Assembly: GCA_033723415.1 (NCBI GenBank)
Contig: JAWVXD010000003.1
Span: forward strand, 160,001 to 224,000
DNA from: Sulfurospirillaceae bacterium
GTDB lineage: Bacteria > Campylobacterota > Campylobacteria > Campylobacterales > Sulfurospirillaceae
DNA: 64,000 bases
Direction: 5' to 3'
Positions 31,959-57,567 of this stretch are shown piece by piece (positions within the stretch are counted from its first letter, which is position 1; every line of letters starts with the position of its first letter). The notes under the pieces were generated by a model. It did not search any database, was not told the origin of the DNA, and was given only the letters and a program-made list of their open reading frames with translations. Position numbers and translations under genes: made by a program.

Positions 31959-32035
31959 GTCAAGGTAGCTCAGCTGGTTAGAGCGCTGGTCTCATAAGCC
32001 GGAGGTCGGGAGTTCAAGTCTCCCTCTTGACACCA
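31959..32035 (+). tRNA. tRNA with CAT anticodon (elongator Met; lysidine-Ile2 not excluded)
   Basis: GTCAAGG/TCTTGAC acceptor stem, D arm, CTCATAA anticodon loop, GTTCAA T loop, encoded CCA. Confidence 0.95.
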
Positions 32036-32037
32036 CT
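31990..32037 (+). repeat. attL core (48 bp)
   Basis: TCTCATAAGCC...TTGACACCACT identical to 57520-57567. Confidence 0.95.
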
Positions 32038-32065
32038 CAAACCCCTAAAATACGGACTTCTAAAG

Positions 32066-33331
32066 CTAACTAAAATCAACTTTTTTAAAAGTGTCACCTA
32101 AAGTGTCACCAAAAAGATTAATTTTCCTATCTGCATTGATCGCTTTATTTTCAACATATTTGGCATAATGTTTGATTAACATTTGTAGGTCACTATGCCC
32201 CAGAATGTTGGCGATTTCCTGCATTGTAAAGGCTTTTGACTCAATCGCACTCACTGCAAAGGTATGGCGACAATTTTTGAGATCCCGATACTCGATACCT
32301 AGATCAGAAAGTAGCTTATACCATTTTGTATTGTTTTTTATAGCTTTTCCATTTTTGACGATGAGCCTATCTCCTCTAATATCTTTGATGTCGGCGAGAT
32401 GCGAGCCGTCTAAATTCGAAAACAACCAAAGAGATTTTTTCGAGTAAGCTTGTCTTACAAGTTCTTCAAAATATGGTAGAGTAGCATCAAAAATTGGAAT
32501 TACTCTGTCTCGGTATTTTGTTTTTGTTTCCTTGACTTTACCCTTTGTTATGTTGCGTTGGATACTAATAGTTTGGTTTACAAAATCAATGTCTCTAAGT
32601 TGCAAAGCTAAAATCTCCGCTGGACTCATTCCCTGATTGATGGCAATCCCTAAATAGTAATGAAGTAAATCTCCATATTTTTGTTGGTCTCGGCTTGCAG
32701 ATAAAAGCCGTAAAACTTCATTTTTTTCAAAGGGCTTGATAGCATCGGTATTTCTATCTTTTTTTGCATCAAGTTTTATTTCATATGTGAAGTTTTTTAC
32801 TACTCCATCATCTGCGGCGACTTCAAAAATCCCGTGTAAAATTCTCAAATATTTTAGCTTAGAATTTTTACTGAGATCTGCACCTGTTTGTGAATGAGTT
32901 AGGCTGTTGAGCCAAAGTTTAATATCAAGTTTTGTAATCTTTTTGATATTAACATGTCCAAATTGTAATAAGATACGATTAGCACGATATTCAGCATTCT
33001 GATAATCGTAGTTTTGCTTATAATTGCTAAGAAAAATAGAACAGTAGTATCCAAAATTCTCACTTTTTTTGGCACTAAGTTGCATTTCTTCTTTTTTCCT
33101 TGCGAGCCAAACTGGTAGATATTTTTGCTCCATAAACTTTTGAGTTTTTTCGGTTTTTAGGACTTTTGTACTTTCTTCGATAGTTTTCGATTCTTGATTT
33201 TTAAAGAACACAGTATAACGTATATACCAGAATTTTCGATTTGAGCGATTTAAAATAATCGCCTGCATATCTTCCACATTTATCTCCTTTTGTGAATTTA
33301 AAGGAGATTTAGCAGATACAATTAACGACAT
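32066..33331 (-). CDS. Tyrosine recombinase/integrase (true start probably 33277 or 33268)
   Basis: GMSPAEILAL box I, KETKT, KNCRHTFA, LGH, HY motifs; AAGGAG RBS before GTG 33277. Confidence 0.93.
   Translation of the reverse strand: MSLIVSAKSPLNSQKEINVEDMQAIILNRSNRKFWYIRYTVFFKNQESKTIEESTKVLKTEKTQKFMEQKYLPVWLARKKEEMQLSAKKSENFGYYCSIFLSNYKQNYDYQNAEYRANRILLQFGHVNIKKITKLDIKLWLNSLTHSQTGADLSKNSKLKYLRILHGIFEVAADDGVVKNFTYEIKLDAKKDRNTDAIKPFEKNEVLRLLSASRDQQKYGDLLHYYLGIAINQGMSPAEILALQLRDIDFVNQTISIQRNITKGKVKETKTKYRDRVIPIFDATLPYFEELVRQAYSKKSLWLFSNLDGSHLADIKDIRGDRLIVKNGKAIKNNTKWYKLLSDLGIEYRDLKNCRHTFAVSAIESKAFTMQEIANILGHSDLQMLIKHYAKYVENKAINADRKINLFGDTLGDTFKKVDFS
32087..32109 (+). repeat. Tandem AAAGTGTCAC, candidate integrase arm site (left)
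   Basis: AAAAGTGTCACCTAAAGTGTCAC identical to 57412-57434. Confidence 0.75.
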
Positions 33332-33346
33332 AATGCTACCATTTTT

Positions 33347-33577
33347 TTACTTTCGATTTAGAAGTTCTAGCACTTCGGGTTCAACTTCGTTACCAATAAA
33401 CCAATTTTCGGTCGCTTCAATGTTCCAAATTACAGCTTTTTTAGTTGCTGAACTGCTTGGAGCAGGGAAGTAATGTATGCCTTTAAAAAAATCAATTTCT
33501 TTTCTTTTTCTAAAAAAATCGACAGAGAGATCAAAAACAAGCGGTAAATTTTTCTCTTGTATGTATTTTTTTTCCAT
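33347..33577 (-). CDS. Probable excisionase / small DNA-binding protein
   Basis: 76 aa immediately upstream of the integrase; winged-helix-like GIHYF...VIWN pattern. Confidence 0.6.
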   Translation of the reverse strand: MEKKYIQEKNLPLVFDLSVDFFRKRKEIDFFKGIHYFPAPSSSATKKAVIWNIEATENWFIGNEVEPEVLELLNRK

Positions 33578-33585
33578 TTCTTCTC

Positions 33586-34866
33586 CTAGATTATTGGTAT
33601 ATCAATATTGTTATAAGACTTATCCGAATAACTAAACGACCTATCCGACAAGTATTCTCTTTCCTCAATACCCCTAAATTTGGACTTATCCGAAGAAAAA
33701 GGACTTATCTGACCTATCCGAGAGTTATTTTTATAGACTATTTCGACTTTAGGTTCTTTAATAAGTTCGTAAACATCTCTATTGTTTTTTTCTGGGATTT
33801 TTGTGGCTCTCCAGAGCTTGTCTTTACCAGTTTGGACAACTGTATTATTTTTATCTTTATTTACATACCCTTGGTCGATAAGATGCTTAATTATCTGGCT
33901 GTAAGTTGGTTTTTCGTTTTGATTTTTTAGAAAATCAATAATCTCGGCTTTGATTTCTTCGTGTTCTTCCGTTTCTTTTGCCCAGCTGAGATCTACTTTG
34001 TTGATGGTGTGGGTATCTTGATTGTATGTAAATGCAATTTCTGTCAGCTCGCCGACTCTTTTTTTGATAGGAGTGAAAATAAAAGTTCTCCTAAAATCAT
34101 TTTTTTTAAGTATAAATGCATTTGAAGTATCCTCTTCCCAAGCACTAGAACCTGCGTATGTAAGTTCCGCCAAATCTTTCTGAGGTTTGTTGGTGTGATG
34201 CAGAAATAGTACAGTTGCACCTTGCCGCCGTAGGCTTTTTAACATATTCATGGTCTCTGATACGTCACGATTTTTGTCTCGATCACCTTTAACAAAGTTT
34301 TTTATAGAGTCAAAGACGATAAAGGTGTTAGATAGATCTGTTTCGTAGAGAGTTGATACAATCGAAAGCATTTCTGATTTTTTAGCATTAGACTCGTGGA
34401 AGTATCTAAACTTTTTTCCAAATTTTATTTTTACCGAGTCAATTTCTCTTTCTTTAATCGTTGTTATGCCGTTGTCGCCGTCGAAATAAACTATTCTCTT
34501 CCCGTTTTTTGCAACATAATTTGCAATGCCTATCGCTGTCAAGCTTTTGCCCGATTCTGGTTTTGCGGCAATCATCGTAATTTCATTTTCGACGATCATA
34601 TTTGGGTATAAATAATCAAATTTTGCATTTTTGACTTTAACTGGATCAAGATCAAATTTATCAAGAAATTTTTCTATTTCATCGAAAGATTTTTTTTCTT
34701 TTATGTCGAGATTTTGTTTTAATTTTTCAATTTCGATGTCTATTGCTTCTAGCTCCTCGAAATTTATATATCCGCTAATTTTCAATTTTTCGAGTTGATT
34801 TATTTGTTGCTTTATTGCCTCTTTTTGTTGTACCTTTTTTTCGATTTCGATTATTATTTTATTCAT
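33586..34866 (-). CDS. RecA-like/SF4 (AAA_25-type) helicase-like ATPase
   Basis: Walker A AKPESGKS, YFDGD, FIVFDS, LHHTNK, AGSSAW motifs. Confidence 0.8.
   Translation of the reverse strand: MNKIIIEIEKKVQQKEAIKQQINQLEKLKISGYINFEELEAIDIEIEKLKQNLDIKEKKSFDEIEKFLDKFDLDPVKVKNAKFDYLYPNMIVENEITMIAAKPESGKSLTAIGIANYVAKNGKRIVYFDGDNGITTIKEREIDSVKIKFGKKFRYFHESNAKKSEMLSIVSTLYETDLSNTFIVFDSIKNFVKGDRDKNRDVSETMNMLKSLRRQGATVLFLHHTNKPQKDLAELTYAGSSAWEEDTSNAFILKKNDFRRTFIFTPIKKRVGELTEIAFTYNQDTHTINKVDLSWAKETEEHEEIKAEIIDFLKNQNEKPTYSQIIKHLIDQGYVNKDKNNTVVQTGKDKLWRATKIPEKNNRDVYELIKEPKVEIVYKNNSRIGQISPFSSDKSKFRGIEEREYLSDRSFSYSDKSYNNIDIPII
33618..33732 (-). repeat. ~114-bp iteron-containing segment, copy 1 (inside helicase 3' end)
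   Basis: Reverse complement matches 57238-57351 with few mismatches; about five GGATAAGT-like units. Confidence 0.85.
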
Positions 34867-34879
34867 TTTTCTTTACCTT

Positions 34880-35416
34880 CTATGCAACAAAATTAAAAAG
34901 AGATGGCTGCGTATACTTGCATTCGTGCGCTATTTCAACTTTTTTTTCTTCAATTTTTTGCAAGTCGATTGTCGATTTGCAGGGTAGTCTTTTGCAACTT
35001 GTCCTGCCGTCGAAGTATTCTTCGATTTGAACTAAATTTATATCGATATAATTTTTGTATCTCGGATCGAAAAGATTTTTTAGTTCTGCTACGTAACGAT
35101 CAAGCAGCCATTTCGCCGCTTGCTCTGTGTCGCACAATTTCTTCGCCAAGCCGCCGCAATCCAGCATCGCGCGAAATATCCATTTTTTGATTTTCGCTCG
35201 CATTTTAGCTTCGATCAAGCAGGCGAAATCGTCGATCCGAAACGCCAGCCACTCCCAACTTTTATCAATTTTAAGAATTTCTCTTGCGAACTCTCTGCCA
35301 GCCCCTCCAGCGCCCCAAAACTGGTGCTCTTCTCGCATCGCAACATCTTGCAAAAACGTAATTGGATCTGTCCATTTCGCTGCAAACAACGAAGAATATA
35401 GCTCTTTTGCTTTCAT
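34880..35416 (-). CDS. Hypothetical protein, first gene of the leftward operon
   Basis: 178 aa, AAGGAG RBS, visibly more GC-rich than its neighbours; no family recognised. Confidence 0.75.
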   Translation of the reverse strand: MKAKELYSSLFAAKWTDPITFLQDVAMREEHQFWGAGGAGREFAREILKIDKSWEWLAFRIDDFACLIEAKMRAKIKKWIFRAMLDCGGLAKKLCDTEQAAKWLLDRYVAELKNLFDPRYKNYIDINLVQIEEYFDGRTSCKRLPCKSTIDLQKIEEKKVEIAHECKYTQPSLFNFVA

Positions 35417-35616: not shown

Positions 35617-35704
35617 TATTTTGATGAATTTTTCACTATTTTTATATTTTATATTTTTTTGGTATCATTCTGTGTATATTTTAAACAAATTCAAAAGGAA
35701 CGTT

Positions 35705-36373
35705 ATGAACTCAGCTGAATTAATATTTGAATACATTAAAAAAAAATATAATTTTTCAAAAGATAAAGAAGTTGCGGATAAAATAGGAGTCAATTATAAT
35801 ACTCTCAAAAACTGGGTAGTAAGGGATTCCCCCAACTACCAGGTCATAATTGATTTTGCAAAAACAGAGAAAATTGATTTAAACGAATTATTTAACTCTA
35901 GTCTTGCAGCTCCTTCTTTAGAAAATTCACCCTCGATGATTGCTCTTCAAGAGGCTAATGCCGTGGCGGCAAATGAAAATGAAGTTGCTGATTATCTTAA
36001 AAAATTTACACTCAATAAGTTGCTGCAAAAAATCTTCAATAAAAAAGATGGTTTCTGGGGAAAGCTAACAGATATTATTTTTCCACTTACACAGAGACTT
36101 ATCGTTGTTACGTATAAAATCTTTAAGCACATTTCAAAAGATGAAAATACTGAGATTGATGATGCGAAAAGTTATTTAATTGATAAAATTCAAAATTTAA
36201 AGCTTTTAGAATTTGAACACATTGGAATTACACCATGGGATATTAAAAAACTTGTTTCAATAATTGAAAATATGAATGAGGATGAGTGTAGAATTTTAAT
36301 TGAGGACACAAATCGATCACTGGATCAAATAAGACAATATCTAGGTTTTATTGATCAAATAACAATGAAATAA
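35705..36373 (+). CDS. Phage CI-type HTH repressor-like protein
   Basis: N-terminal KDKEVADKIGVNYNTLKNWVVRDSP HTH; divergent from the replication operon; start at ATG 35705 after AAAGGA. Confidence 0.8.
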   Translation: MNSAELIFEYIKKKYNFSKDKEVADKIGVNYNTLKNWVVRDSPNYQVIIDFAKTEKIDLNELFNSSLAAPSLENSPSMIALQEANAVAANENEVADYLKKFTLNKLLQKIFNKKDGFWGKLTDIIFPLTQRLIVVTYKIFKHISKDENTEIDDAKSYLIDKIQNLKLLEFEHIGITPWDIKKLVSIIENMNEDECRILIEDTNRSLDQIRQYLGFIDQITMK

Positions 36374-36376
36374 GGG

Positions 36377-36547
36377 CTATTTTAGCCCTTTGCGTTTACA
36401 GTAGCGATAAAACCCATTATATGTAATTTGTACATTATTTGGCATCTTGTGACTTAGTATTTTCCAAATGCTTCTCAAGCTCGCACCAGTTTTTACAAAT
36501 TCCTCGATCTCTTGTCTGTACAGATCCAATATACTTACTTTACTCAT
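36377..36547 (-). CDS. 56-aa HTH-like protein (below ORF-track cutoff)
   Basis: GGAGG RBS; MSKVSILDLYRQEIEEFVKTGASLRSIWKILSHKMPNNVQITYNGFYRYCKRKGLK. Confidence 0.65.
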   Translation of the reverse strand: MSKVSILDLYRQEIEEFVKTGASLRSIWKILSHKMPNNVQITYNGFYRYCKRKGLK

Positions 36548-36619
36548 TTTATTCCTCCATTTTCTTTCTTATCTATATTCATAATTCATCACTACTTGCA
36601 CAGTATTTAAACACTTCAA

Positions 36620-36754
36620 ATTTACTTTAAATAAAGCTTATTTGAAGTAAATCTAAGCTTCAAAGATACTTTATTTAAGCTCTATTTGAAGTAAATCTAA
36701 AGCTTATTTAGAGCATATTTGAAGTAAATTTAAGCTCCAAAGATACTTTATTTA
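36620..36754. repeat. AT-rich direct/inverted repeat cluster
   Basis: TATTTGAAGTAAATYTAA at 36639, 36683 and 36716; 39-bp near-duplicate 36639-36677/36716-36754; inverted partial copy at 36620-36633. Confidence 0.8.
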
Positions 36755-36948
36755 GAGCTTATATAAAGCTTTTCAAGGGCTCTTCTAATTTCATGTAAAT
36801 TGTGTAATTCCCAATCAACAAATCTTTTTTTATTGACCATCGAAACATCGTATTTTAGCCTTTCACATTCGTTTTCAAGCTCACTTATTTTCTTCAACAC
36901 CAGTTCGTAAATTTCTTGTGTAGCAGTTGGTAGGATTGGCTTTGTCAT
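36748..36948 (-). CDS. Small coiled-coil hypothetical protein
   Basis: GGAGG RBS before ATG 36948 (MTKPILPT...). Confidence 0.6.
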   Translation of the reverse strand: MTKPILPTATQEIYELVLKKISELENECERLKYDVSMVNKKRFVDWELHNLHEIRRALEKLYISSK

Positions 36949-37152: not shown

Positions 37153-37153
37153 G

Positions 37154-37660
37154 TTACCAAGATATGATAAGATTTACCGAAGCGGTTAAGGTACCTGCAT
37201 CACAAGTATATTTTCCAGTACCGCTATCAAGGCTACAACCCGTTATAGGGTAAACATTAGGATATAGTGTTACCGTTTCGGTTGATCCAGTCGCCGTTCT
37301 GTTCCAAGGAGAGTTAGACATTACCAAATTTGTTTTTGATGCGTCTTGATAAAACTTCATCCCGTAGGTACTTCCAGTACCATTTGCCTGCATCGTATAT
37401 TGAGTTGCGTTTGTCGTTATAGAATATGATAATCCACTTGAGCAAGTCAGATCGAAAGTCAAAGGGTTCATCACTTCACCAGTGTTGCTCATAACCGTTG
37501 GAACAGTTCCAAGATCAAGTGTGGTACTCAAGTTTGCAATATTGCAACCTCCAGTATAAGTAATTGTTACTGGAACAGTTGTACTTGTAGAACCAGCAAA
37601 CGATACTGTTGTCAAACAAGCCATTAATATAGCTGTTAAAATACTTTTTTTCATCTGCAC
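37154..37660 (-). CDS. Spore coat U (SCPU/Csu-type) pilin subunit
   Basis: Signal peptide, GC...LDLG...C pattern, ends VNLIISW. Confidence 0.75.
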   Translation of the reverse strand: MQMKKSILTAILMACLTTVSFAGSTSTTVPVTITYTGGCNIANLSTTLDLGTVPTVMSNTGEVMNPLTFDLTCSSGLSYSITTNATQYTMQANGTGSTYGMKFYQDASKTNLVMSNSPWNRTATGSTETVTLYPNVYPITGCSLDSGTGKYTCDAGTLTASVNLIISW

Positions 37661-37664
37661 CTCC

Positions 37665-38138
37665 TTACCATGAAATTGTTACATTTAAAGTATCGCTGTA
37701 TGTTCCAGCTGGCGGCAATGGGTTATTATCTGCCATCGCAACTTTTGCATATACATTAATTGTATCGGTTGATCCAGTCGCCGTTCCAGTAATTGTATTT
37801 GCTGTCGTCGCTCCAAGCTCCGTGGTCATACCTGCATCACTGTAAAGTCTATAAGTAATATAATCTGTTCCACTGGCAGCTCTTCTTAATTCACCGTTTG
37901 GATTTCCTCCGCCATCAATTGTTGCTGTCCAATTTAGACCACTATTACAGATAATATCTACATTGAAGTTTGCAGTTGCATCGCTAACACCGCTAAAATC
38001 GAGTGTGAGAGCTGGACTGTTTGTAATGCTACAAGTTTGTTCGGCTGTACCGTTTACCGTTACAGTTCCACCAGTCGTTCCAGCTACTAAACTTATTGCT
38101 CCAAAGAAGAGCATCATAAGACATAAAACCTTTTTCAT
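37665..38138 (-). CDS. Spore coat U (CsuA/B-type) major pilin
   Basis: Signal peptide, two Cys, ITYRLYSD, PAGTYSDTLNVTISW. Confidence 0.85.
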   Translation of the reverse strand: MKKVLCLMMLFFGAISLVAGTTGGTVTVNGTAEQTCSITNSPALTLDFSGVSDATANFNVDIICNSGLNWTATIDGGGNPNGELRRAASGTDYITYRLYSDAGMTTELGATTANTITGTATGSTDTINVYAKVAMADNNPLPPAGTYSDTLNVTISW

Positions 38139-38159
38139 TGTTCCTCCTAAAGTCTAGAT

Positions 38160-38756
38160 TTATTTGCTTTCGCACCTATAAGCATAATTCCCGTGATTTG
38201 TTTCAATCGTTCCGCTTGCTCTTACATTGTCCACCTCCTTAATGTGGTTTGGTAAAACATACTCATTCATCTTCTTATCTGTGATAGATAAGATTTTATA
38301 GTGCATATTCCCACTATTTTTTATTTGAAGTGCATGACCTTTGCAGCTCAATTCAAGTTTTGGTTTTTGAAATTTCGGCAGGATAAAAACGGGAATAGAT
38401 AGAGTCTTTAATACTCTTGTTTGCCCTTCAAACTTATTGATATTCAGCTCTCTTAAGATAAGCCTATAAGATTTTTCTTGGGGTATTAAATTACTTCGTT
38501 TGTTATACACTTTTATCTTTTTTGGAGCTTGTAAGATTCTCGGATATACAACAACTTCATTAGTATTCTCCAACACTTCCTCTCCTTTTGTATCCTGAGT
38601 CCATTTTTTGATGTAAGCTTGATATTTACCGTTATCATCAGCTATGGTAAACTCTTTGTACTTCTTGCCGTATTGAATTTCTACTGGGATTGGATGCACC
38701 TGCAATGCAAAAGCTGCTATACTTGATAGTAGTGACACTAAAACTATTTTCTTCAT
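38160..38756 (-). CDS. Fimbrial periplasmic chaperone (CsuC-like)
   Basis: WTQ..GEEVL, VYP, EKSYRLILREL, LSIPVF, NSGNMH motifs. Confidence 0.85.
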   Translation of the reverse strand: MKKIVLVSLLSSIAAFALQVHPIPVEIQYGKKYKEFTIADDNGKYQAYIKKWTQDTKGEEVLENTNEVVVYPRILQAPKKIKVYNKRSNLIPQEKSYRLILRELNINKFEGQTRVLKTLSIPVFILPKFQKPKLELSCKGHALQIKNSGNMHYKILSITDKKMNEYVLPNHIKEVDNVRASGTIETNHGNYAYRCESK

Positions 38757-40711
38757 TTTCTTTTCTCCTGACAGTTGATTTGAACCTCATTGGGTTCTTT
38801 ACCCTTATTCATAAAATTAACTTTGCAACTTGTATTTGGTATTTGAGGGATAAAATCCTCATATTTTCCTATAAAACCATCGATCCAGAACTCACCGTCA
38901 AAGCCAGTAAAATATTCTTTATCTCCGACTTTAAAAGTTTTTTCATTGTATGGCTTGCCGTTTACTTTGATGGTTCCAGTAATCGTTTTATAAAGAGATG
39001 GATCTAACCAATAACCTTGGCCACTTTTTAGAGTTACTGGCGTGCTTGTAAATTTATTCTTCACATCGGTAGTCCAGTAAGACGGTATTCTCTTTAATTC
39101 CTTATCCTCTAACAAATAAGAGCTTGCTGGATAGATGACATCACCAAAGCCACAATTAATGCCCTCTGCAACTACGCAACCGATAGAACCGCTTATACCA
39201 AGATCCCAAGTTGTCTGATCGCTGATTTTTTGAGCATTAAACCAAAAGTTATTTTGATATTTTGCTTTTAATGATGCTTTGTATGTATCGCTCGTATAGC
39301 CTAAATCACTGGTTTGTTTTGAATAACTGGCTTCATATCCAAAACCTTTATGCTCATCCTCAATTGGCATCGATGTAGCTATGTATTTGCTTTGTCCATC
39401 ATCTTTGCTGGTGTTTGCATAGGTAAGAGTGGTTCTTCTACTCCCAATATCAAAATTCCAAACAAACCTTGCACCTATATTATAAGTATGATCTGTATTG
39501 TTAAAATTTGCATTGATTGAGAGATTGAGATTTTTCCAAAGCATTTTAGAGTAACTTACCCCAAAGAGAGTCTGAGCATTTGTGTGAAATTGAAGAGAGA
39601 TATTACCAAACCCTCCAGATACTCCAGCGTTGATCCTAAAATCACTTTTTTTGTCTTTTAGTATCTGCATTGCACCGATGTAATAGTTTTCAGATGAATA
39701 ACTGTAATCTATTGCTGCATTTTTTTTATTATCGATTTGTAATCCGAGTTTACCAAGAGTAGAGAGATAATCGGCCGTAAGTGCAGTTCTGTTAGTATCA
39801 AAAGCAAACCCAACCGTTAAATTGTCTGTAATTCCCTTTCTATAAAACCCACTGTATTGCATTTTTTGCTTTTCGTCTTTACCGATGGCAAAATCATAAT
39901 CGATGCTATCTTTTGCAAGTATATTTTGGTTGTAAAGAAAAGGAACGTCTATCTCTCTTGCATTCCCAAAACTATCAGTCACAACTATTTTTATGTTGTT
40001 TGAAAAATGGCTTATTGGTAAATCTCTTAAGTTGTAGATACCTGCATTTAAGGTAAGCTTTTGGATTATTTGATCATTGTTGTAGATTTCTACCGTTGAT
40101 TGATCATTGATCACTAACTGATAATCAAAAGTTTTTCCATTTTGAACCATCGCTTTATTTGGAGAGATTTGAACTCCCTCAAGAGCATATCCAGCAGTAA
40201 GATAGCTTCCAGATACAGCATAGACACTTCCAAGCTTGAGTTTTTTTTTCTCAAATTCTTTTAAGATGAAGTAGTTTTCGAGTTTATTTTCTTGCTTATC
40301 CGACAATGTTCCTTGAGTGTAGAATAAAGTATTATAAGCAAAAACTCCACTTCCCAGAGTTGCACTTACACCAGTATCTCTTTGTGCAATAGAGTAATTT
40401 AAAAAAGCGGATGTGCTATCTTTAAAGTATTTCTTTTTTTGTTGCCTAAAAGATAGTACTTCTTTTGATAAACATTTTCTTTTAGGCTTTAAAAATAGCT
40501 TTTCATCACTTTCTTGATACACTCCTAGATCTGATAAGTTTTTAGACGAGCATTTGCCAAAGGTAATATTATCATCAGCTATATACTTGCCGTTATCCTG
40601 AGTAAATAAAAAAGTACCTATTTGTTCAGTTCCAACAAATAGATCTAAAACTTTTGGCTCTGCAAAAAGAAAAATGGGTAAAAAGAGAAAAGCCTTAGTT
40701 AGATGCTTCAA
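38753..40711 (-). CDS. Outer-membrane fimbrial usher (CsuD-like, compact)
   Basis: SAFLNYS, plug STVEIYNND...GIYNLRDLP...IVVTDSFG, YRKGITDNLTVG, TGFDGEFW; likely TTG start at 40711 after GAGGGG. Confidence 0.85.
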   Translation of the reverse strand: MKHLTKAFLFLPIFLFAEPKVLDLFVGTEQIGTFLFTQDNGKYIADDNITFGKCSSKNLSDLGVYQESDEKLFLKPKRKCLSKEVLSFRQQKKKYFKDSTSAFLNYSIAQRDTGVSATLGSGVFAYNTLFYTQGTLSDKQENKLENYFILKEFEKKKLKLGSVYAVSGSYLTAGYALEGVQISPNKAMVQNGKTFDYQLVINDQSTVEIYNNDQIIQKLTLNAGIYNLRDLPISHFSNNIKIVVTDSFGNAREIDVPFLYNQNILAKDSIDYDFAIGKDEKQKMQYSGFYRKGITDNLTVGFAFDTNRTALTADYLSTLGKLGLQIDNKKNAAIDYSYSSENYYIGAMQILKDKKSDFRINAGVSGGFGNISLQFHTNAQTLFGVSYSKMLWKNLNLSINANFNNTDHTYNIGARFVWNFDIGSRRTTLTYANTSKDDGQSKYIATSMPIEDEHKGFGYEASYSKQTSDLGYTSDTYKASLKAKYQNNFWFNAQKISDQTTWDLGISGSIGCVVAEGINCGFGDVIYPASSYLLEDKELKRIPSYWTTDVKNKFTSTPVTLKSGQGYWLDPSLYKTITGTIKVNGKPYNEKTFKVGDKEYFTGFDGEFWIDGFIGKYEDFIPQIPNTSCKVNFMNKGKEPNEVQINCQEKRK

Positions 40712-41729: not shown

Positions 41730-41743
41730 AATAGGAGTATTCT

Positions 41744-49590: not shown

Positions 49591-49659
49591 GGAAAAGAGC
49601 CTCAACAATTTAATAAATTATGAATATAGATGAAACATAAATTTACACAAGGAGTAACA

Positions 49660-49953
49660 ATGTCAATTATAGATACCGTACTAAAAAAGTACGATACAAG
49701 CGGCTGTGAGAAAAAATCATCATTGAGCGTAAAAATAAACGCAAATCTTGCCAAAGATATTGATACAGTTTGCAATCATCTTGGTATTTCAAAAAGCCAA
49801 CTGGTAGCGGATATTATTGAAGTATCTGGCATATCAAAAAAAGCGGAAGAGATAGCGGTACTAAAGGAAGAAAAAGAGACTTCAAATAAAAGTCAAACTG
49901 GTAATTTTTCTCCCTTAAAAACCAATCAAGCGACAGATAGTAAAGGAGAGTAA
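49660..49953 (+). CDS. RHH/CopG-like DNA-binding protein
   Basis: SSLSVKINANLAKDIDTVCNHLGISKSQLVADI; AAGGAG RBS before ATG 49660. Confidence 0.65.
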   Translation: MSIIDTVLKKYDTSGCEKKSSLSVKINANLAKDIDTVCNHLGISKSQLVADIIEVSGISKKAEEIAVLKEEKETSNKSQTGNFSPLKTNQATDSKGE

Positions 49954-49955: not shown

Positions 49956-50405
49956 ATGGCATTAGGATTTTTACATGAAAATTGGCTTTTTCGTGCTTTT
50001 GAGAACATAGAAACAAATGTAAAAATGGAGACTAAAGGTTGGAGTCTATATGCAAGTATTATTGGATCGCCATTTATAGTTTCGTCGATAATCTATTTTA
50101 TCCATAAAATAATGGAAAGAAGAGCGATGCAGTTAGCACGAATTTCTCTTAGACATTTTAGCTGGATTGACATATCAATAATTCCTTACATTGGTATTGG
50201 GGTAGTCCTCACATTGTTGGTAGCTTTTTTGTTTGGAAAAAAATTTTTAGATTATGTCAAAGAAGAGAATAAAAAGCTCATCAGCGATGAGTATATAAGA
50301 GGTGCAAAATTAGTTTGCAATGATGATTTTAATGATCAGTTTACTGAATACGATGACTTTATAGAGATAAAAGTTGTTGATGAACAATGTACGAGACAGT
50401 TTTAA
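49956..50405 (+). CDS. Membrane protein resembling the N-terminal anchor of a coupling protein
   Basis: Two TM segments then YIRGAKLV, like the RG motif that precedes the TraD/TrwB cytosolic domain. Confidence 0.65.
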   Translation: MALGFLHENWLFRAFENIETNVKMETKGWSLYASIIGSPFIVSSIIYFIHKIMERRAMQLARISLRHFSWIDISIIPYIGIGVVLTLLVAFLFGKKFLDYVKEENKKLISDEYIRGAKLVCNDDFNDQFTEYDDFIEIKVVDEQCTRQF

Positions 50406-50418: not shown

Positions 50419-51693
50419 ATGAGTATTATAATTCCAAAAGTAGCAACAAGGCAACACATAGGTTTTATAGGAACAACTGGTTCGGGAAAAACTCAAGGTA
50501 TGATGCAAATATTTGAGGCTTTTTTTCATTCAAAAAAAATCATAATCGATGTGAAAGGAGATTATGTTTCAACATTTAAAAAAGAAGATGATTTGATTTT
50601 TTGTCCGCTTGATGAACGAACTATCAAATGGAATATTTTTAACGATATTGAAACATACCAAGATGTAGCAAACATTGCCTTATCTTTAATTCCAGAAAAT
50701 CCAAAAGTTAGTGATCAATATTTTGATCGAGCTGCAAGAAGTGTTCTTGAGGGTGTTTTAATAGGCTTATCAAAAATGCAAAAACCAAGTAATAAAATGA
50801 TATGGGAAACTATTACATCGCCCAAAAATATTATAGAAATTATGAAAACAGATGATGAAGCAAAACAGAAAATGGAAGCTCACATCGATGACGGCTTAGA
50901 TAAACAAACTAGAGGTATCATAGGTACAATTTTGGCGAATGCTGGAGGGGCACTGGAAGCTCTTGCAAATATGGATGGTGATTTTTCTTTTAAAAAGTGG
51001 ACTCAAAATGAAATAAATAAAAAAAGCATCTTTTTACTGGGTGAAGAGAGAATTTTGGACTCTATGCTGCCGCTTTATAGATTAGTTGTAGAGATAGTTG
51101 CAGGAGAGCTTTTGTCAATGCTAGATGATGAGAATAGAGAATTGTTCTTTTGGTTAGATGAGTTACCAAGACTTAAAAAACTGCATAAGGTTATAGATCT
51201 TATGACATTAGCTCGTTCAAAGGGCGGTAAAGTTGTTTATTCCGTTCAAACAATAAAACAGTTGGAAGAGCAATACAAACGAGAGGGGATGGTCACTATC
51301 CTTGATACGACTAACACCAAATTTATTTATAGAACATCCGATGCTCAAGATTTAGAAAAAATCCTTGGACAGCAAGAGGTTTTAGAATATACTGAGTCTC
51401 GTTCTTGGGGGCCGAACGATATGAGAGACGGTGGTGGTCATACAAAACCTAAAAAAATAAAATATGTTGTTTTAGCCTCCGAAATACAAAATTTAAGACC
51501 TTTAGAGTTTTATGTAAAAAGCATCGCTCCATATGTCACAAAAGCACGATTAGAGTATATCGGAAGAGATCCAAAATGTTTAAAATTTGTCCCAAACATT
51601 AGAAAAATTAAAAAAGCAGGAGATTTTTATAAAAATCTTGTGAAGCTAACCCCAGTAAATAGTGAAAAGATTGATTTTGAGGAGTTCTTGTAA
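50419..51693 (+). CDS. Type IV coupling protein ATPase domain (TrwB/TraD-like)
   Basis: Walker A GTTGSGKT, IIDVKG, PLDERTIKWN, Walker B FWLDEL, ARSKGG, ASEIQNL. Confidence 0.9.
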   Translation: MSIIIPKVATRQHIGFIGTTGSGKTQGMMQIFEAFFHSKKIIIDVKGDYVSTFKKEDDLIFCPLDERTIKWNIFNDIETYQDVANIALSLIPENPKVSDQYFDRAARSVLEGVLIGLSKMQKPSNKMIWETITSPKNIIEIMKTDDEAKQKMEAHIDDGLDKQTRGIIGTILANAGGALEALANMDGDFSFKKWTQNEINKKSIFLLGEERILDSMLPLYRLVVEIVAGELLSMLDDENRELFFWLDELPRLKKLHKVIDLMTLARSKGGKVVYSVQTIKQLEEQYKREGMVTILDTTNTKFIYRTSDAQDLEKILGQQEVLEYTESRSWGPNDMRDGGGHTKPKKIKYVVLASEIQNLRPLEFYVKSIAPYVTKARLEYIGRDPKCLKFVPNIRKIKKAGDFYKNLVKLTPVNSEKIDFEEFL

Positions 51694-51718: not shown

Positions 51719-51883
51719 CTAAATACCAATTAAACGATGGATTATCCCAACTAGCAGATCTTTAAAAAGAACCATTATCGCTTCGCTTTTAAAAGCAAAT
51801 AACCACATAAAAGCAACTGCCCATAAAATTTTCTTTGATAAAAGATTTCCTAAGAGCTCACCAAAAAATATTCTCATCAACAT
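51719..51883 (-). CDS. 54-aa hydrophobic peptide
   Basis: AAGGAG RBS; MLMRIFFGELLGNLLSKKILWAVAFMWLFAFKSEAIMVLFKDLLVGIIHRLIGI. Confidence 0.55.
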   Translation of the reverse strand: MLMRIFFGELLGNLLSKKILWAVAFMWLFAFKSEAIMVLFKDLLVGIIHRLIGI

Positions 51884-51924
51884 AACTAACTCCTTTTTGG
51901 AAGATAAGAGAGAAGGCTTTAAAA

Positions 51925-52290
51925 TTAAATTGTTGTTAAATAATGTAATTTCCTCTTAACTTGTATGCCGTTTTCATCAATCATTTCTCTCATGTTTTGC
52001 TCTTCGATTTCAAGCCCTAAATTTTCCCCATGCGGACGGGCGTATCTAATCCCTTTTTTTGCTAACTCTTCGGCGAACATACTTGCAAGTTCTGTATTAA
52101 ACACATCTCTCCGATTTTCTGTTACCGCATGAAAATTAAAAAGACTATCCCCTAGTCCTATTTTTGTGTATAGACTTGTTATAGATTTAAGATTGTTCTT
52201 TTTCATAACTTTTTTTAACAACCTTTCGCTTTTTAAAACTGTATTTAAATCAAAATACTTAATATGTGTAATAATCTCTTTTGCTTTCAT
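51925..52290 (-). CDS. Hypothetical protein
   Basis: 121 aa with AAGGA RBS. Confidence 0.65.
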   Translation of the reverse strand: MKAKEIITHIKYFDLNTVLKSERLLKKVMKKNNLKSITSLYTKIGLGDSLFNFHAVTENRRDVFNTELASMFAEELAKKGIRYARPHGENLGLEIEEQNMREMIDENGIQVKRKLHYLTTI

Positions 52291-52504
52291 TTTTTATCCT
52301 TTTTAGTTTAAATTTTTGATATGTAGCTAATCTTGCTAACCATTTTTTTGCACTCTCTCTTTTTTGTTCTTTGCCTATATTTTTACTCCTTTCGTCATTC
52401 TCGATTTTTATAATATTGTCTCCTTTACCTATATTCATAAAACTATCAATCGGCCGTAGCCAACTTGATAGAACATTGCTTCTTTTCTTGTCGTATTTTG
52501 TATA

Positions 52505-52580
52505 ATTATAGCGAAATACGCTAATATTGTCAAGTGATTTTCGATATTTAATAGCGATTTCCGCTAATTTGTGATATAAT
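52505..52580. promoter_or_regulatory. Divergent promoters with two palindromic operators
   Basis: Minus TTGACA-17-TATAAT (52533-52505); plus TGATATAAT near 52572-52580; TAGCG-N5-CGCTA at 52509-52523 and 52552-52566. Confidence 0.75.
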
Positions 52581-52611
52581 ATAAAATTAATGAAGTTATT
52601 AAGGGAATAGT

Positions 52612-52812
52612 ATGTTAAATGATATGGAAATAATGAGGCTTTTTGGTATTCCAAATACTACCATGAGAGATTGGAAAAAAAAAGATAAAAGCGACTGGAG
52701 ATACAAGATTGCTATGTTTTTAAAGAGTCAAGATAAAGAGCGTGTAGAAGCATTTTTAAAGGCTTATGAGCTTGAGAAACTTTCTCCCTCAACACCCCAA
52801 AGTGCTCATTAG
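52612..52812 (+). CDS. Small HTH regulator
   Basis: EIMRLFGIPNTTMRDWKK HTH pattern. Confidence 0.75.
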   Translation: MLNDMEIMRLFGIPNTTMRDWKKKDKSDWRYKIAMFLKSQDKERVEAFLKAYELEKLSPSTPQSAH

Positions 52813-53125: not shown

Positions 53126-54358
53126 CTATTGTTTAAGAGATTTCAAAATTTCCATTGTTGGCATAGTTGGACTTGAATCTTGGGCTAATAATCCAGTATC
53201 AACTCGACTAAATAATGCTTGTAATATAATACTTTGGTTTTCTTTAGCTATTTCAGCACCTTCATTCATTAATGATAAATAAACATACGTTAATTGTTCT
53301 CTCTCCTCAGCATCTCGTTTTAGATGAAAAGAGCTAAAAGCTAATTTTGCAAATGAGCGGATCATAAATATGTATATTGTTATCATTGTGCCAAAAATAA
53401 CAACACCTTCAAGATTATTTAAAGCTAATTTTAACTCCTTGGCGTATAGCCATTGCGTGAAATAATGGCCAAAAATACACATTCCTCCTAACAGTAGGAT
53501 GGTCAATATCAGAAAATGCCAGTTACCTTGAGTTTGGTAAGTTTTTGCTCTTTGATTCCAATAGTCTGCAGGTTTTTTCAATCTAAGCAACTCTTGATAA
53601 GTATTTTCTAATTCTTGTGCTCGATTTTTTTGTTTTTCAATATAATCTTCAAATTCATTTTTAGTGTTTTCCATATAAGTATTGAATTCATTGTCGCGTT
53701 TTTTTTGAGTACGTTGTAAGAGTTTTGCATTGACTCTTTTGAATTTTTTATTATAGTCTATAATTTCAACTTGTGTATTTTCCCAAGTTTTTTCATATTT
53801 GTCTGTCTTTTTAATTAGATCATTTGTTTTATCATCAAGTCTATTTATAAAATTTTCAAAAGTTTTTTCTTCCCCTAGTCGTCTTGTTACAATATCAGAT
53901 TTATTTTGCATCTGATATTCATATGCTAATATAGCTCCTTTAAGATTATCATATTGGTTGATATCTAGGAGCCTTTTTTGCAATATTGCCATTAAAAATG
54001 CTAAACCCGTGTTTGGTGATAATTTACAATTCTCGATAAAATTAATAACATATGGATGTCCACTCCAAAGCCATTGCCTATCCAAATTGTTCATTTCATT
54101 TTGTATAACTTGCAATAAATTGATATATTGTACAGACTCTAGCGTATCTATTTTTGCTTCAAAATCATTAACTTTTTGAAGTATCATGGGTAAAGATTTT
54201 TTAGCATTAATAAATGGAGGAGGAAGCGTACCACCAGGAGCATTTTCTTCCAAAAAATCAATTTCATTTTGTAGAAAATCTTTAATTTCTGATACTGACT
54301 TATACTCAAAACCTTTCCCAGAATAATCTCGGAACGAAACTTGAAAACTATTTGCCAC
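53126..54358 (-). CDS. Coiled-coil plus 2-TM protein (DUF6161-like)
   Basis: PADYW, two TM segments, HLKRDAEERE...YLSL C-terminus. Confidence 0.65.
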   Translation of the reverse strand: MANSFQVSFRDYSGKGFEYKSVSEIKDFLQNEIDFLEENAPGGTLPPPFINAKKSLPMILQKVNDFEAKIDTLESVQYINLLQVIQNEMNNLDRQWLWSGHPYVINFIENCKLSPNTGLAFLMAILQKRLLDINQYDNLKGAILAYEYQMQNKSDIVTRRLGEEKTFENFINRLDDKTNDLIKKTDKYEKTWENTQVEIIDYNKKFKRVNAKLLQRTQKKRDNEFNTYMENTKNEFEDYIEKQKNRAQELENTYQELLRLKKPADYWNQRAKTYQTQGNWHFLILTILLLGGMCIFGHYFTQWLYAKELKLALNNLEGVVIFGTMITIYIFMIRSFAKLAFSSFHLKRDAEEREQLTYVYLSLMNEGAEIAKENQSIILQALFSRVDTGLLAQDSSPTMPTMEILKSLKQ

Positions 54359-54411
54359 GAATATTCCTTATTATTTTAAATATATTATATACCACCTGAA
54401 TCAAATTTTAA

Positions 54412-55086
54412 TTATTTATCAAATGCTATTTCTTTAATTCTATAACAATCCACCACATGATCTTTCAATTTATCATGTCTGTAATCAACATTGAGTACGT
54501 TGTCATATTTAAAACACTTCTCAAAATGTGCTTTGTTGTTATAATATATTCGATAGAGTGTTGATGGTATAACAACATGGTTTCTTATTGTATGATTTGG
54601 ATTATCATACTTTGCTATTGAGATGGAATTAATATAGCCTAGCTTTTGAGCAAGAGCTCTTCCATACCTTTCTACTTTGATCCAAGTCTTTTGATTCACC
54701 ATTGCGCTTTGAGGAACAATATTAGCCATAGTATAAGCTTTTCTCAGTGCTTTATGATCATAATCAAAATCTGCATCTGATACAATAAAGTGACCTCGGT
54801 TCCAATCTTTTCCATACCCTCTATAATCTTTGGATTTTGATCTATATTGTACCGGTATTGTCTTTTCACTATAAAACTTCATTCTTCTTTTGATATTGTT
54901 CTTATTGACTAAAGATCCATCTAATCTGACCCAACCAGACAAAGCTCCTTTATATTTATAGGAGTAACAGATATGATAGAGTTGTTTATCTATGATTTGA
55001 TCACACTTGGAGGTATTTACAAAATCGGATAGATTGGTTGCGTAGAGGGATAAAGTTAGTATTGATAGAAGAAGGAGTTTTTTCAT
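54412..55086 (-). CDS. Secreted DNA/RNA non-specific endonuclease
   Basis: Signal peptide; NRGH (DRGH-type), ANIVPQ...NQKTW...E motifs. Confidence 0.88.
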   Translation of the reverse strand: MKKLLLLSILTLSLYATNLSDFVNTSKCDQIIDKQLYHICYSYKYKGALSGWVRLDGSLVNKNNIKRRMKFYSEKTIPVQYRSKSKDYRGYGKDWNRGHFIVSDADFDYDHKALRKAYTMANIVPQSAMVNQKTWIKVERYGRALAQKLGYINSISIAKYDNPNHTIRNHVVIPSTLYRIYYNNKAHFEKCFKYDNVLNVDYRHDKLKDHVVDCYRIKEIAFDK

Positions 55087-55161
55087 AGATATCCTATGTA
55101 CTTCGTTTTTTATAATTTTACAATAATTTTTTACTATAAAATAGAAAATGTCAAAATTGAA

Positions 55162-56421
55162 TTACTTATTTGTTATTTCTATTGTATTTAAAAGTCTAAC
55201 TAGACTTCTTGCAACAGCATATGACAAATTGACTGGTACTGCATTTCCAATTTGCTTATATTGATTTGTTGTTGAACCTGCAAACTCCCAATCATCAGGG
55301 AAAGTTTGTATCCTTGCATATTCTCTAACTGTTAATGGTCTTGTCTCCTCAGGATGACATCTTTCTGTCTGTTTTTGTGCGGGAGCACAAGTTAATGTCA
55401 AGCTTGGCTCATCATATGACAATCTTCTGGCCATACCAGTTTTTCCGCCACCAAGAAAGTAACTTTTTTGCATATATTCTCTTTGCAAATCATCTGGAAG
55501 ATCTTTCCAATATCCACCTGCTGGAACTAAATCTAAGATCTCTTTTTTTCTTTTAGGATATTGTTGCCCCGCTGAATCTGGAACATCACTATTGTATAAA
55601 TCCCCTTTTTTGAGAGCATCTTTCATAGTCATTATTCTTTTATATGGAGATGGCCACCTAAAATCATTTGATGATATTTTTTCCATTATATCTTTTCTTA
55701 CTCCTACAAAAAATAATCTTTCTCTTTTTTGTGGAACTTGATAAAATATTGCTTTTAAAACATTAGGTTCAGTGATTAATTCATAGCCTATATCTTCAAT
55801 AACAGATTTTATTGATGCTAAAGTTCTTCCCTCATCATGTTTTAGTAATCCTCTTACATTTTCTGCCAAAAATATTGTAGGTTCACATTCTTTTACAGCT
55901 CTAGCAAATTCAAAAAACAGTGTACCTCTAGCATCTTCAAAACCTAGTTTTTTCCCTGCATAAGAAAAAGCCTGACAAGGAAAACCTCCAGATAAAATAT
56001 CTATTTTACCTTTGTATTTTGTAAAATCTAATTTTGAGACATCTCCCTCTACAACATTCCAAGACGGTCTATTCTGTCTTAATGTTTGACAAGCAAATTT
56101 GTCTATCTCATTTAACAAAATAGCATCTAAACCTGCTTTTTCAAAACCTAATGCCAAACCTCCAGCTCCTGCAAATAATTCTATTGATTTATATTTTCTC
56201 AATGGCTTAGTTGTGAGCTCTTCATCCCATAATGTATTAAACATCAGCTGTGCTTCTTCAAAATCACTTAATTGAGTTCTATGATATACTCTATAATTAT
56301 TTATAGGATGTCTAATGGGTTCTAATTTACCATTTTTATCCCATCTTCTTAAAGTTTCTTTCGAGACTGATAATATATCAGCTACTTCTGAAATATTGTA
56401 ATATTCTTTTTCCATTGTCAT
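55162..56421 (-). CDS. C5-cytosine DNA methyltransferase with N-terminal MerR-like HTH
   Basis: FAGAGG, GFPCQ, ENV, QKRER, QIGNAV; N-terminal ISEVADILSVSKETLRRWD. Confidence 0.93.
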   Translation of the reverse strand: MTMEKEYYNISEVADILSVSKETLRRWDKNGKLEPIRHPINNYRVYHRTQLSDFEEAQLMFNTLWDEELTTKPLRKYKSIELFAGAGGLALGFEKAGLDAILLNEIDKFACQTLRQNRPSWNVVEGDVSKLDFTKYKGKIDILSGGFPCQAFSYAGKKLGFEDARGTLFFEFARAVKECEPTIFLAENVRGLLKHDEGRTLASIKSVIEDIGYELITEPNVLKAIFYQVPQKRERLFFVGVRKDIMEKISSNDFRWPSPYKRIMTMKDALKKGDLYNSDVPDSAGQQYPKRKKEILDLVPAGGYWKDLPDDLQREYMQKSYFLGGGKTGMARRLSYDEPSLTLTCAPAQKQTERCHPEETRPLTVREYARIQTFPDDWEFAGSTTNQYKQIGNAVPVNLSYAVARSLVRLLNTIEITNK

Positions 56422-56534
56422 AATTAAACCTTATTCAACCTTATTTATGGTTATTATATCTAAAATATTATTAAACTTACCCTATATTTAAACTTGCTAT
56501 GATTACAAATCAATCAAATTTTAGGTAGGTTAAT

Positions 56535-57224
56535 ATGTCGTATTTTAAAAATGATGATGCACTTTCAAAAATAATAAAAAAGATTTATGATGCTTATGTA
56601 GCTGCTAAATCTTCTAATGATATTCATAGTAATGTCATTGATCCATTTTCAGCTTTATTGGAAGCAAGTTTTAATGAAATGACTTATGATGAGTGGATTG
56701 TAGCAGAAGAGTCTAGGCAAGTACAAAAAACATTGCAAAATGCAATAGGAAGTTTTCACGAAGAGATAATTGGTGAAATTAAGGGTTTTGAGAATTTAAA
56801 AGTTGGTGAGATTATAGATATTGTTTCTAAAGATAAAAAAATCATTGCAGAGATTAAAAATAAATGGAATACTACAAAGGGAAATCATAAAGTAGCAATA
56901 TATGATGATATAGCATCAGTATTAACTACTATTGGAGATGGATTTACTGGATACTATGTAGAAATAGTTCCTAAAAAATCAACTCAATATAATAAAGAAT
57001 TTACTCCTTCTGACAATAAAACTCACTCACAAAGAACAGCAAACTCTAAAATTAGAGTAATTGATGGCAAAAGCTTTTACGCAATGATAACTGGTGATGA
57101 AAATGCCGTATTTAAAATTTATAATGAAATAGTAGCAGAACTTGAAAAGCTTGGTTTAAATACAGAGGATGACTTTAAAAAACTTTTAACAAAAGCTTAT
57201 GGAGAACCAACTCAACAATCTTAA
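56535..57224 (+). CDS. Type II restriction endonuclease (Eco47II-like)
   Basis: IDPF, RQVQKTLQNAIG, D...AEIKNKWNT PD-(D/E)xK pattern; divergent from the MTase. Confidence 0.75.
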   Translation: MSYFKNDDALSKIIKKIYDAYVAAKSSNDIHSNVIDPFSALLEASFNEMTYDEWIVAEESRQVQKTLQNAIGSFHEEIIGEIKGFENLKVGEIIDIVSKDKKIIAEIKNKWNTTKGNHKVAIYDDIASVLTTIGDGFTGYYVEIVPKKSTQYNKEFTPSDNKTHSQRTANSKIRVIDGKSFYAMITGDENAVFKIYNEIVAELEKLGLNTEDDFKKLLTKAYGEPTQQS

Positions 57225-57237
57225 TCATCTTCCGTTA

Positions 57238-57351
57238 AAAAATAACCCTCGGATAAGTCAGATAAGTCCTTTTTCTTCGGATAAGTCCAATTTTAGGGGT
57301 ATTGAGGAAAGAGAATACTTGTCGGATAGTCGATCTAGTTTTCGGATAAGT
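57238..57351 (+). repeat. ~114-bp iteron-containing segment, copy 2 (non-coding, inverted)
   Basis: Matches the reverse complement of 33618-33732. Confidence 0.85.
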
Positions 57352-57411
57352 TGCCAAAGTTCAAAACTTGCCAAATTGACTATATATCTAAAAAACGGAT
57401 ATCTGACACAA

Positions 57412-57434
57412 AAAAGTGTCACCTAAAGTGTCAC
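57412..57434 (+). repeat. Tandem AAAGTGTCAC, candidate integrase arm site (right)
   Basis: Identical to 32087-32109. Confidence 0.75.
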
Positions 57435-57519
57435 TAAAATCATCAAAATAAGCATAAAATAGCGTTAATTGTATATGGCTAAATCCCCATAATTAAGTAT
57501 TTAAGGGTTTTTGGACTTC

Positions 57520-57567
57520 TCTCATAAGCCGGAGGTCGGGAGTTCAAGTCTCCCTCTTGACACCACT
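57520..57567 (+). repeat. attR core (duplicated tRNA 3' half)
   Basis: Identical to 31990-32037; no tRNA 5' half upstream. Confidence 0.95.

Follow-up and report, generated by a model that had tools for sequence, protein, structure and literature searches.

We describe an integrative element of about 25.6 kb (31990..57567), set in a tRNA-Met gene of a Sulfurospirillaceae bacterium contig (JAWVXD010000003.1, positions 160,001 to 224,000; this whole stretch of 64,000 nucleotides is the window), and propose a model for its transfer that most reasonably fits its gene content and that of its relatives. It belongs to a family of integrative elements that carry a relaxase, their own type IV coupling protein (T4CP) and a conserved envelope kit instead of a type IV secretion system (T4SS); this family is real and apparently undescribed. 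We read the element, with a probability of roughly 45%, as self-transmissible, its relaxase piloting single-stranded DNA (ssDNA) through a VirB4-free channel built from the secreted protein s528. We advance a shade more tentatively the proposal that this would be the first relaxase conjugation without VirB4 in a diderm, with a TrwB-type pump driving ssDNA through an s-protein beta-tube, and hence a new class of mating-pair formation (MPF) in environmental Campylobacterota that is scored as mobilisable. Support at the level of sequence comes from the integrase with its att sites, the T4CP, a conserved oriT-like site, an envelope kit under selection and shared promoter motifs. Coordinates are collected in Table 1.

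Judged by gene content, s528 marks a family of Campylobacterota integrative elements whose core is the set of unassigned envelope genes. Fourteen metagenome loci and one Sulfurimonas metagenome-assembled genome contig carry the long-form kit in a shared order where the contigs reach (s528, lip355, lip245, barrel, o118, small membrane genes, a helix-turn-helix (HTH) gene, the 56-aa gene, cI, integrase), and the loci in which lip355 or lip245 is missed are those with incomplete contigs. A T4CP or relaxase gene adjoins the s-gene in 15 of the 21 related loci; in the other six (L004, L008, L010, L015, L016, G009) the contigs end at or inside the s-gene. Homologs of s528 and of the relaxase also stand in Hydrogenimonas thermophila, their locus tags six apart. 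Four elements are complete and bounded by att sites (that of the window, G231, G218 and G011), measure 25.6-36.3 kb and lie in tRNA-Met, -Met, -Ser and -Leu genes of three host families. The kit persists while the DNA-processing module swaps, with a probable HUH relaxase and split T4CP here and an unrelated relaxase type, MOBF (TrwC E=1e-72), and fused T4CP beside the long-form kit of L013; MOBF also accompanies the short form described below (G231, G011 and G485 by Pfam, G218 by BLAST). In the presence matrix the barrel and o178 columns are partly circular, their hidden Markov models (HMMs) containing members of the scored loci, and L059 and L060 were left out. The open-access literature, supplements excluded, yielded no account of the family, although large catalogues of integrative elements may list members.

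The first-pass annotation of this DNA had recognised neither VirB4 nor VirB10, and profile searches bear this out for both element and genome. VirB4 was looked for throughout the genome (100% complete, in 17 contigs) with PF03135, PF19044 and TIGR00929, the last giving only Walker-A matches of 20-44 residues, and VirB10 with PF03743; none was found. The element holds no unassigned open reading frame (ORF) of ATPase size. None of the four complete elements has a VirB4-like ATPase, and their Walker-A proteins are confined to the helicase-type ATPase, the T4CP and MOBF, except that the usher and a Gly-rich ORF of 358 aa in G011 each contain a lone motif match. No recognisable VirB or Tra subunit is among the envelope proteins (Pfam, NCBIfam and HMMs for all, structural comparison for the s528 and s350 models only). 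When 976 ORFs of six VirB4 loci and the plasmid pHRV44 were searched with HMMs of the mature parts of the kit proteins, the best match had E=0.028. A match of lip355 to TraV was dropped, since it covered only the signal peptide region (residues 1-46).

The envelope genes themselves appear well maintained. The ratio of nonsynonymous to synonymous substitution rates (dN/dS) for five of them is 0.10-0.27 at dS 0.87-1.48 (one pairwise comparison each, with L003), and they are thus under purifying selection rather than decaying. Lipobox, signal and Y-x-F features agree with the earlier assignment of two lipoproteins, a 528-aa secreted protein and a predicted, barrel-like outer-membrane protein; the lipobox GC is invariant in both lipoproteins, and, judged by its signals, the kit extends from the inner membrane through the periplasm to the outer membrane. 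Gene order around the lipoproteins, the secreted protein and the barrel is kept among the long-form relatives as far as their contigs reach.

The channel subunit that we propose is s528. It has 27 close homologs and a few distant ones, whose source names are Campylobacterota plus one Thermodesulfatator record, and a single-query search found it in none of 60 other genomes of the family. A broader profile reached a short form of 343-350 aa (s350; 34 homologs), which gave strong matches in 6 of the order's 401 genomes. The two forms are joined by hhalign across the N-terminus only (96%), and s528 is the sole match of the short-form HMM in its own genome (E=3e-4). Matches in G225 (E 5e-4, apparently the signal region of a protease-like ORF) and G366 (weak, E 7e-4) were dropped. 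All 60 family sequences tested carry an N-terminal signature of a two-faced beta-strand of about 70 residues, 81% polar and free of Pro and Cys, in which Ser/Thr alternates with a period-2 power of 2.52 and 3.55, where shuffled sequences reach at most 0.38 and 0.42. One face is about half Ser/Thr with 2-3% K/R, the opposite face 30-39% K/R plus aliphatic residues, a split present in 26/26 and 34/34 sequences, which are related to each other; the Ser/Thr part of it is partly built in by the assignment of faces, whereas the charge and hydrophobic parts are not. Such a segment would suit an extended beta-strand whose folding depends on oligomerisation. The lumen would then be small and non-basic, allowing DNA to slide, and the outside would carry too much charge for lipid. 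The s528 and s350 models (pLDDT 76 and 77) are confident over the protein bodies. Foldseek returned no PDB match to the s528 model at E up to 0.001, and its best VIA wide match has Z 5.8 and a root-mean-square deviation (rmsd) of 2.8 over 68 aligned residues; the s350 model has no match in BFVD or PDB and at best Z 5.8, rmsd 3.5 and 79 aligned in VIA. ESM Atlas held no usable match to s528, profiles of s350 and the lipoproteins met PDB sequences at chance level only, and P0037 and s350 had no match in the plasmid collection. A trimer prediction for the short form scored 0.02 and bears neither way. Identity in s528 drops to 23% at residues 151-200, compared with 57-70% in the part that begins at residue 301, and the variable middle may set partner specificity. 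This middle looks mosaic, P0014 and P0015 having window-like ends and a middle resembling that of P0016-P0022.

The DNA-processing module is largely as the first-pass annotation had it: the att sites are complete, the ATPase is of TrwB/TraD type, and a candidate oriT consists of a hairpin and the core GGCTGACTTG, invariant in 7/7 aligned elements. The claim of an HUH relaxase with a ribbon-helix-helix (RHH) protein stands in full for the latter. The relaxase, with Y17 and H107/H116/H118 invariant in 5/5 aligned homologs, is probable and not proven, because it has no Pfam, NCBIfam or PDB match and its nearest ESM Atlas clusters (PF03432/MobL, 0.87) fall below the 0.9 lead mark. Its profile met PDB sequences only at chance level, the plasmid collection held no match, and a P0087 search of the family of G218 gave C-terminal fragments only and no relaxase; a relaxase-HMM match in G113 was dropped, the protein being TraK. 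The membrane subunit of the T4CP is a separate gene that aligns with the N-terminus of fused T4CPs. This split recurs in six metagenome relatives (L002, L003, L005, L007, L009, L014) and in pHRV44, so that a frameshift can be rejected. A tree of 18 rows places the main element T4CPs in two groups and sets these apart from its three F-type TraD rows; the long-form group has a support of 87/93, and three rows sit on long branches. The elements of G231, G485 and G570 have two T4CP genes each, of different clades (L023 6066-7952 and 12405-13658; L044; L045). The GRER tail of o117 is presumably a T4CP-substrate motif, which would make this protein a candidate substrate.

The element is further bound together by two motifs, where one shared upstream motif on all operons had been claimed. 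Motif A, a 16-mer, has 10 exact copies, every one of them within the element; the rest of the 2.43-Mb genome has none, and chance would give 0.06 copies in the window. With up to 2 mismatches allowed it is also present in 11 of 15 long-form loci, often at a distance of 37 nt ahead of motif B; it was not found in short-form elements or L014. Motif B, a 12-mer, has 13 matches in the element at up to 2 mismatches, about 10 of them some 25-50 nt upstream of start codons (context read by eye); the genes include pilin, chaperone, lip355, barrel, RHH and the T4CP operon. Motif A may be an activator site and motif B a -10-type element, and the candidate activator is o178, which has no family match in the libraries. 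A CRISPR-like reading of motif A was rejected, as its spacing is irregular and it sits before motif B in relatives. The envelope genes thus keep the place in the transfer programme first suggested for them, being a conserved backbone with promoter motifs common to the DNA-transfer genes.

The pilus loses that place. Its genes are absent from 21/21 related loci and their slot is variable (L013 has an EAL gene there, whereas L006 and L008 lack cargo of this kind), and we therefore take the pilus to be cargo, not part of the mating machine. Seven loci are informative for this absence, of which L006, L008, L009 and L013 span the site and G231, G218 and G011 are complete elements. Of the four genes described as a Csu-type pilus, the usher (PF00577, 36.9 bits, cut-off 27.1) and the SCPU pilin (PF05229, 80 bits, cut-off 22.4) both pass, whereas the second pilin has no Pfam match, and the chaperone-like protein (38160-38756) has no PapD-type match in Pfam or NCBIfam and is labelled from position. 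Across 400 other genomes the usher finds just three matches, all distant, and the one in G011 lies far from the element of that genome. At 663 aa the usher is shorter than the three other matches in the order, which have open frames of 769-795 aa. The pilus is thus akin to Csu/SCPU-type pili in usher and SCPU pilin, and unlike them in its short usher, unrecognised chaperone and insertion as cargo. It is probably co-expressed, since both motifs occur with its genes: the chaperone gene contains an exact copy of motif A, and motif B (2 mismatches) stands before pilin and chaperone. In L008 a ThsB-type TIR gene and a caspase-domain gene lie between lip245 and the barrel gene (3775-5164), a second cargo hotspot with what is likely a defence pair.

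In our model, relief of cI repression would switch on an element activator, with o178 as the candidate, acting at the motif A/B promoters. The element would then excise, and the relaxase with the RHH protein would nick oriT. The T4CP hexamer would serve as both motor and inner-membrane pore. Polymerisation of s528 would bring its strands of about 70 residues, which could reach up to ~23 nm extended or ~11 nm as hairpins, into a beta-tube with a Ser/Thr-lined, lysine-free lumen, crossing the periplasm or leading to the recipient. The tube would be anchored, and the mating contact held, by o118, the two lipoproteins and the small barrel, while the pilus would be co-regulated adhesion cargo outside the machine.

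Several points weigh against this model. Contig depth, in the run that is possibly the source of this DNA, is level between flank (78-80) and element (74-77) and gives no sign of replication. VirB4 is described as the sole ubiquitous T4SS protein (PMC4027160), and according to PMC3158045 no relaxase is known to work with VirB4-free systems of the FtsK type. Both monomer models show the N-terminal strand as disorder (pLDDT <50). Across the four complete elements no conserved polytopic inner-membrane protein was found, and no wall hydrolase was recognised. The lipoproteins differ between the long- and short-form subfamilies, the short-form elements having other secreted proteins or lipoproteins at the lip355 and lip245 places, and the short-form barrels, at 15-21% identity to that of the element, are only possible homologs of it. 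The loci were gathered through the s-gene, and elements with the same relaxase and no kit would be missed, which is the main gap of the survey; many loci are moreover close kin, perhaps 8-10 lineages by our estimate. VirB4 is in 0/7 host genomes, a count to be expected by chance, as only 30 of the 401 genomes of the order (7.5%) have it. Finally, pHRV44 (Nitrosophilus labii) combines a full F-type tra set with a split T4CP 55% identical to ours, the closest among plasmid T4CPs, and has no kit.

A rival close behind our model, though still doubtful to us, is an integrative mobilisable element that supplies relaxase and T4CP itself but exploits a foreign VirB4 channel, probably that of Campylobacterota F-type plasmids or integrative and conjugative elements (ICEs), the kit stabilising or redirecting the mating pair or giving surface and entry exclusion. 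It is generally understood that a helper need not share a genome with the integrative and mobilisable element (IME) that it serves, and VirB4 systems do exist in the order at the rate just given. Two homologs of m101 occur in pHRV44, one of them immediately before traG, and m101 is a candidate exclusion factor, yet the at least five envelope genes exceed what exclusion is generally known to need. No kit protein matches subunits of the six VirB4 loci or of pHRV44, and the separation of the element T4CPs from F-type TraD in the tree also speaks against such a helper. Motif A at 2 mismatches is absent from pHRV44 and from five of the six VirB4 loci (one match, in G370), and so no helper box is shared. 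The 30 VirB4-positive genomes and the 6 short-s-gene genomes do not overlap, the sample being apparently the same by the tallies. IMEs with their own T4CP or with some MPF subunits exist (PMC5704250; SGI1, PMC5389848; PIMEs, bioRxiv 10.64898/2026.01.12.698999), and those with envelope parts bring homologs of helper subunits, TraN/G/H in SGI1 and TrbJ/L in the IncP island (PMC5704250). Known envelope-bearing IMEs thus copy their helper's subunits, whereas the present kit matches none, which counts against a helper. Within pHRV44, a Rep/ParA/nuclease/split-T4CP block lies between duplicated genes inside the F-type plasmid (37625-45661; L048 22626-30662) and looks like a co-integrated piece related to the element's T4CP operon.

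It is unlikely that the kit is instead a contact-dependent or secreted weapon, or an adhesion device, on a mobilisable element, with s528 a beta-pore-former bearing an exchangeable targeting domain and the paralogous lipoproteins acting as immunity proteins or partners. The Ser/Thr alternating strands are reminiscent of the stems of beta-pore-formers, the middle of s528 is variable and mosaic-looking, and two diverged paralogous lipoproteins come after it. Against this, no pore-former fold or family was matched (profile searches, and structural comparison of the s528 and s350 models), the outer face is K/R-rich and not lipid-like, and the s-gene adjoins T4CP or relaxase in 15/15 informative loci, unlike cargo. 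It is very improbable that the pump exports relaxase-DNA to the outside, into vesicles or lysate, for competence uptake by the recipient: ComEC is in 5/5 hosts tested but also in 10/14 control genomes, which gives no discrimination, and the element carries a non-specific nuclease. Least credible, and largely refuted, is a decayed ICE that lost its VirB4 operon, for although conjugative elements often lose MPF genes (PMC9185392) and a pseudo-ICE class exists (PMC10484663), there are no MPF remnants, four complete elements in three host families share one VirB4-free plan, and the genes are under purifying selection.

The VirB4-free model also has to be placed among known systems. The ICE definition requires VirB4, T4CP and relaxase, and a relaxase locus without VirB4 is scored as mobilisable (PMC3158045); the element has integrase and att sites, a T4CP and a relaxase motif but no VirB4, and with integrase, probable relaxase and oriT but no full T4SS it would, by gene content, classify as an IME. 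Streptococcal MobC IMEs with their own VirD4 likewise combine integrase, relaxase and T4CP without VirB4 (PMC5704250), and the present element differs in its diderm host, HUH/MOBF relaxases and conserved multi-gene envelope kit; the 2017 review lists no canonical IME with MOBF (PMC5704250). SGI1 and the IncP-island IMEs are similarly integrative and VirB4-free, with envelope proteins and element-wide promoter boxes (PMC5704250, PMC5389848), but their subunits are homologs of helper TraN/G/H or TrbJ/L, none of which is detected here by sequence; our element also encodes a T4CP, and no helper is known for it. T4CP-like hexameric pumps with non-T4SS accessories and no VirB4 are described in monoderms, namely TraB/Spd of Streptomyces (PMC12857230) and TraC/TraD of Enterococcus pELF (bioRxiv 10.64898/2026.01.27.701956); those are FtsK-type (TraB moving dsDNA), whereas the element's pump is TrwB-type, with relaxase and oriT and an outer membrane to cross. 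Transfer of dsDNA of the TraB type, as in AICEs, was accordingly rejected on ATPase type, relaxase and oriT-like site. The RHH protein, the TrwB-type T4CP and, in relatives, the TrwC relaxase-helicase resemble MOBF/TrwB conjugative modules, from which the element differs by having no VirB1-11 operon. We take TrwABC of R388 to be the example of such a module.

The remaining features of the element are listed in Table 1. The 76-aa protein is, judged by position, excisionase-like, and the 56-aa protein is one that we assume to be KfrA-like. Beside the latter, an AT-rich unit in three direct copies and two hairpins (36613-36768) is possibly a replication origin or partition-like site. A 35-nt direct repeat (89%) immediately within both att sites (32087-32121 / 57412-57446) may represent integrase arm-type sites, and a 103-nt inverted duplication (92%; 33630-33732 / 57238-57340), which copies the 3' end of the AAA_25 gene near the right att, is possibly a rearrangement remnant or an inversion substrate. 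The cytosine methylase gene (55162-56421) has a MerR-type HTH fused at its N-terminus and is divergent from the Eco47II-family gene. Neither capsid nor terminase was matched among 35 proteins in Pfam/NCBIfam and 23 in PHROGs, as the first reading had it, and five query proteins had no relatives in viral contigs; a prophage or phage satellite was rejected, as these searches gave no virion gene. Among the relatives, Gly/Ala-rich proteins with a hydrophobic hairpin and an Arg-rich tail are encoded immediately before the short-form T4CP (L023 4621-6066, L026 11777-13405), that of G231 with MSGNAM-type repeats, and in L011 an insertion of ~1.3 kb (940-2235) separates o117 and the s-gene.

Table 1. 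Features of the element in window coordinates
Feature	Position	Strand	Basis and remarks
tRNA-Met	31959..32035	+	integration target
att left	31990..32037	+	48 bp, 100% direct repeat of tRNA-Met 3' end
Tyrosine integrase	32066..33331	-	PF00589 E=5e-13
76-aa protein	33347..33577	-	62% identical to G485 gene preceding integrase
AAA_25 / DnaB-like helicase-type ATPase	33586..34866	-	PF13481; PHROG primase/helicase matches
o178	34880..35416	-	conserved, divergent from cI; homologs or positional equivalents in 7 related elements
cI-like repressor	35621..36373	+	PF07022
56-aa DNA-binding-like protein	36377..36547	-	DUF5338 below cut-off; conserved in relatives
Direct and inverted repeats	36613..36768		beside 56-aa gene
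Chaperone-usher pilus	37154..40744	-	pilin-like 168 aa, SCPU pilin 157 aa, chaperone-like 198 aa, usher 663 aa
HTH_3 regulator	40695..40916	-	heads operon that received pilus insertion; 86% identical in L013
Motif A, three copies	40977..41107		ahead of motif B
m101, m50, m44	41144..41878	+	small membrane proteins of 101, 50, 44 aa; m50 and m44 conserved in relatives
o118	41911..42267	-	core kit; N-terminal hydrophobic anchor, conserved acidic/aromatic C-terminus; dN/dS 0.22
Small outer-membrane beta-barrel-like protein	42271..42867	-	core kit; signal peptide, C-terminal Y-x-F; dN/dS 0.27
Motif A, four copies	42911..43135
lip245, lipoprotein	43167..43904	-	core of long-form subfamily; 12/15 long-form loci; lip355 paralog
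lip355, lipoprotein	43914..44981	-	core of long-form subfamily; 14/15 long-form loci
s528, secreted (528 aa)	45021..46607	-	~70-aa two-faced Ser/Thr strand segment, variable middle, conserved helical C-terminus; dN/dS 0.10
o117, charged protein	46618..46971	-	GRER tail; conserved in relatives
o101	46975..47280	-	conserved in 4 relatives
Probable HUH relaxase, unlisted family (592 aa)	47207..48985	-	motif residues, ESM Atlas neighbours
RHH relaxosome accessory protein	48978..49391	-	PF01402
Candidate oriT	49470..49520 (about)		hairpin and invariant core; between RHH and T4CP operon
o107, small RHH-like protein	49630..49953	+	weak RelB/DinJ match; conserved in relatives
T4CP membrane subunit (149 aa)	49956..50405	+	separate gene; two transmembrane segments
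T4CP ATPase, TrwB/TraD type	50419..51693	+	PF10412 E=1.5e-74
Small genes of 54, 121, 131 aa and 66-aa HTH	51719..52812
Cargo: DUF6161 protein, non-specific endonuclease, cytosine methylase, Eco47II-family restriction enzyme	53126..57224		library profiles
att right	57520..57567	+	48 bp, 100% direct repeat with left att

If these elements transfer alone, the VirB4-based rule for ICEs and T4SSs misses a class of self-transmissible elements, and about six genes would suffice to test the power of a coupling protein alone to move relaxase-DNA through two membranes; a VirB4-free mechanism, if true, would be categorically new. If a helper is needed, the elements would still form an IME family that has not been described before, and, as its envelope proteins do not copy subunits of a helper, would represent a new way to hijack a mating pore.

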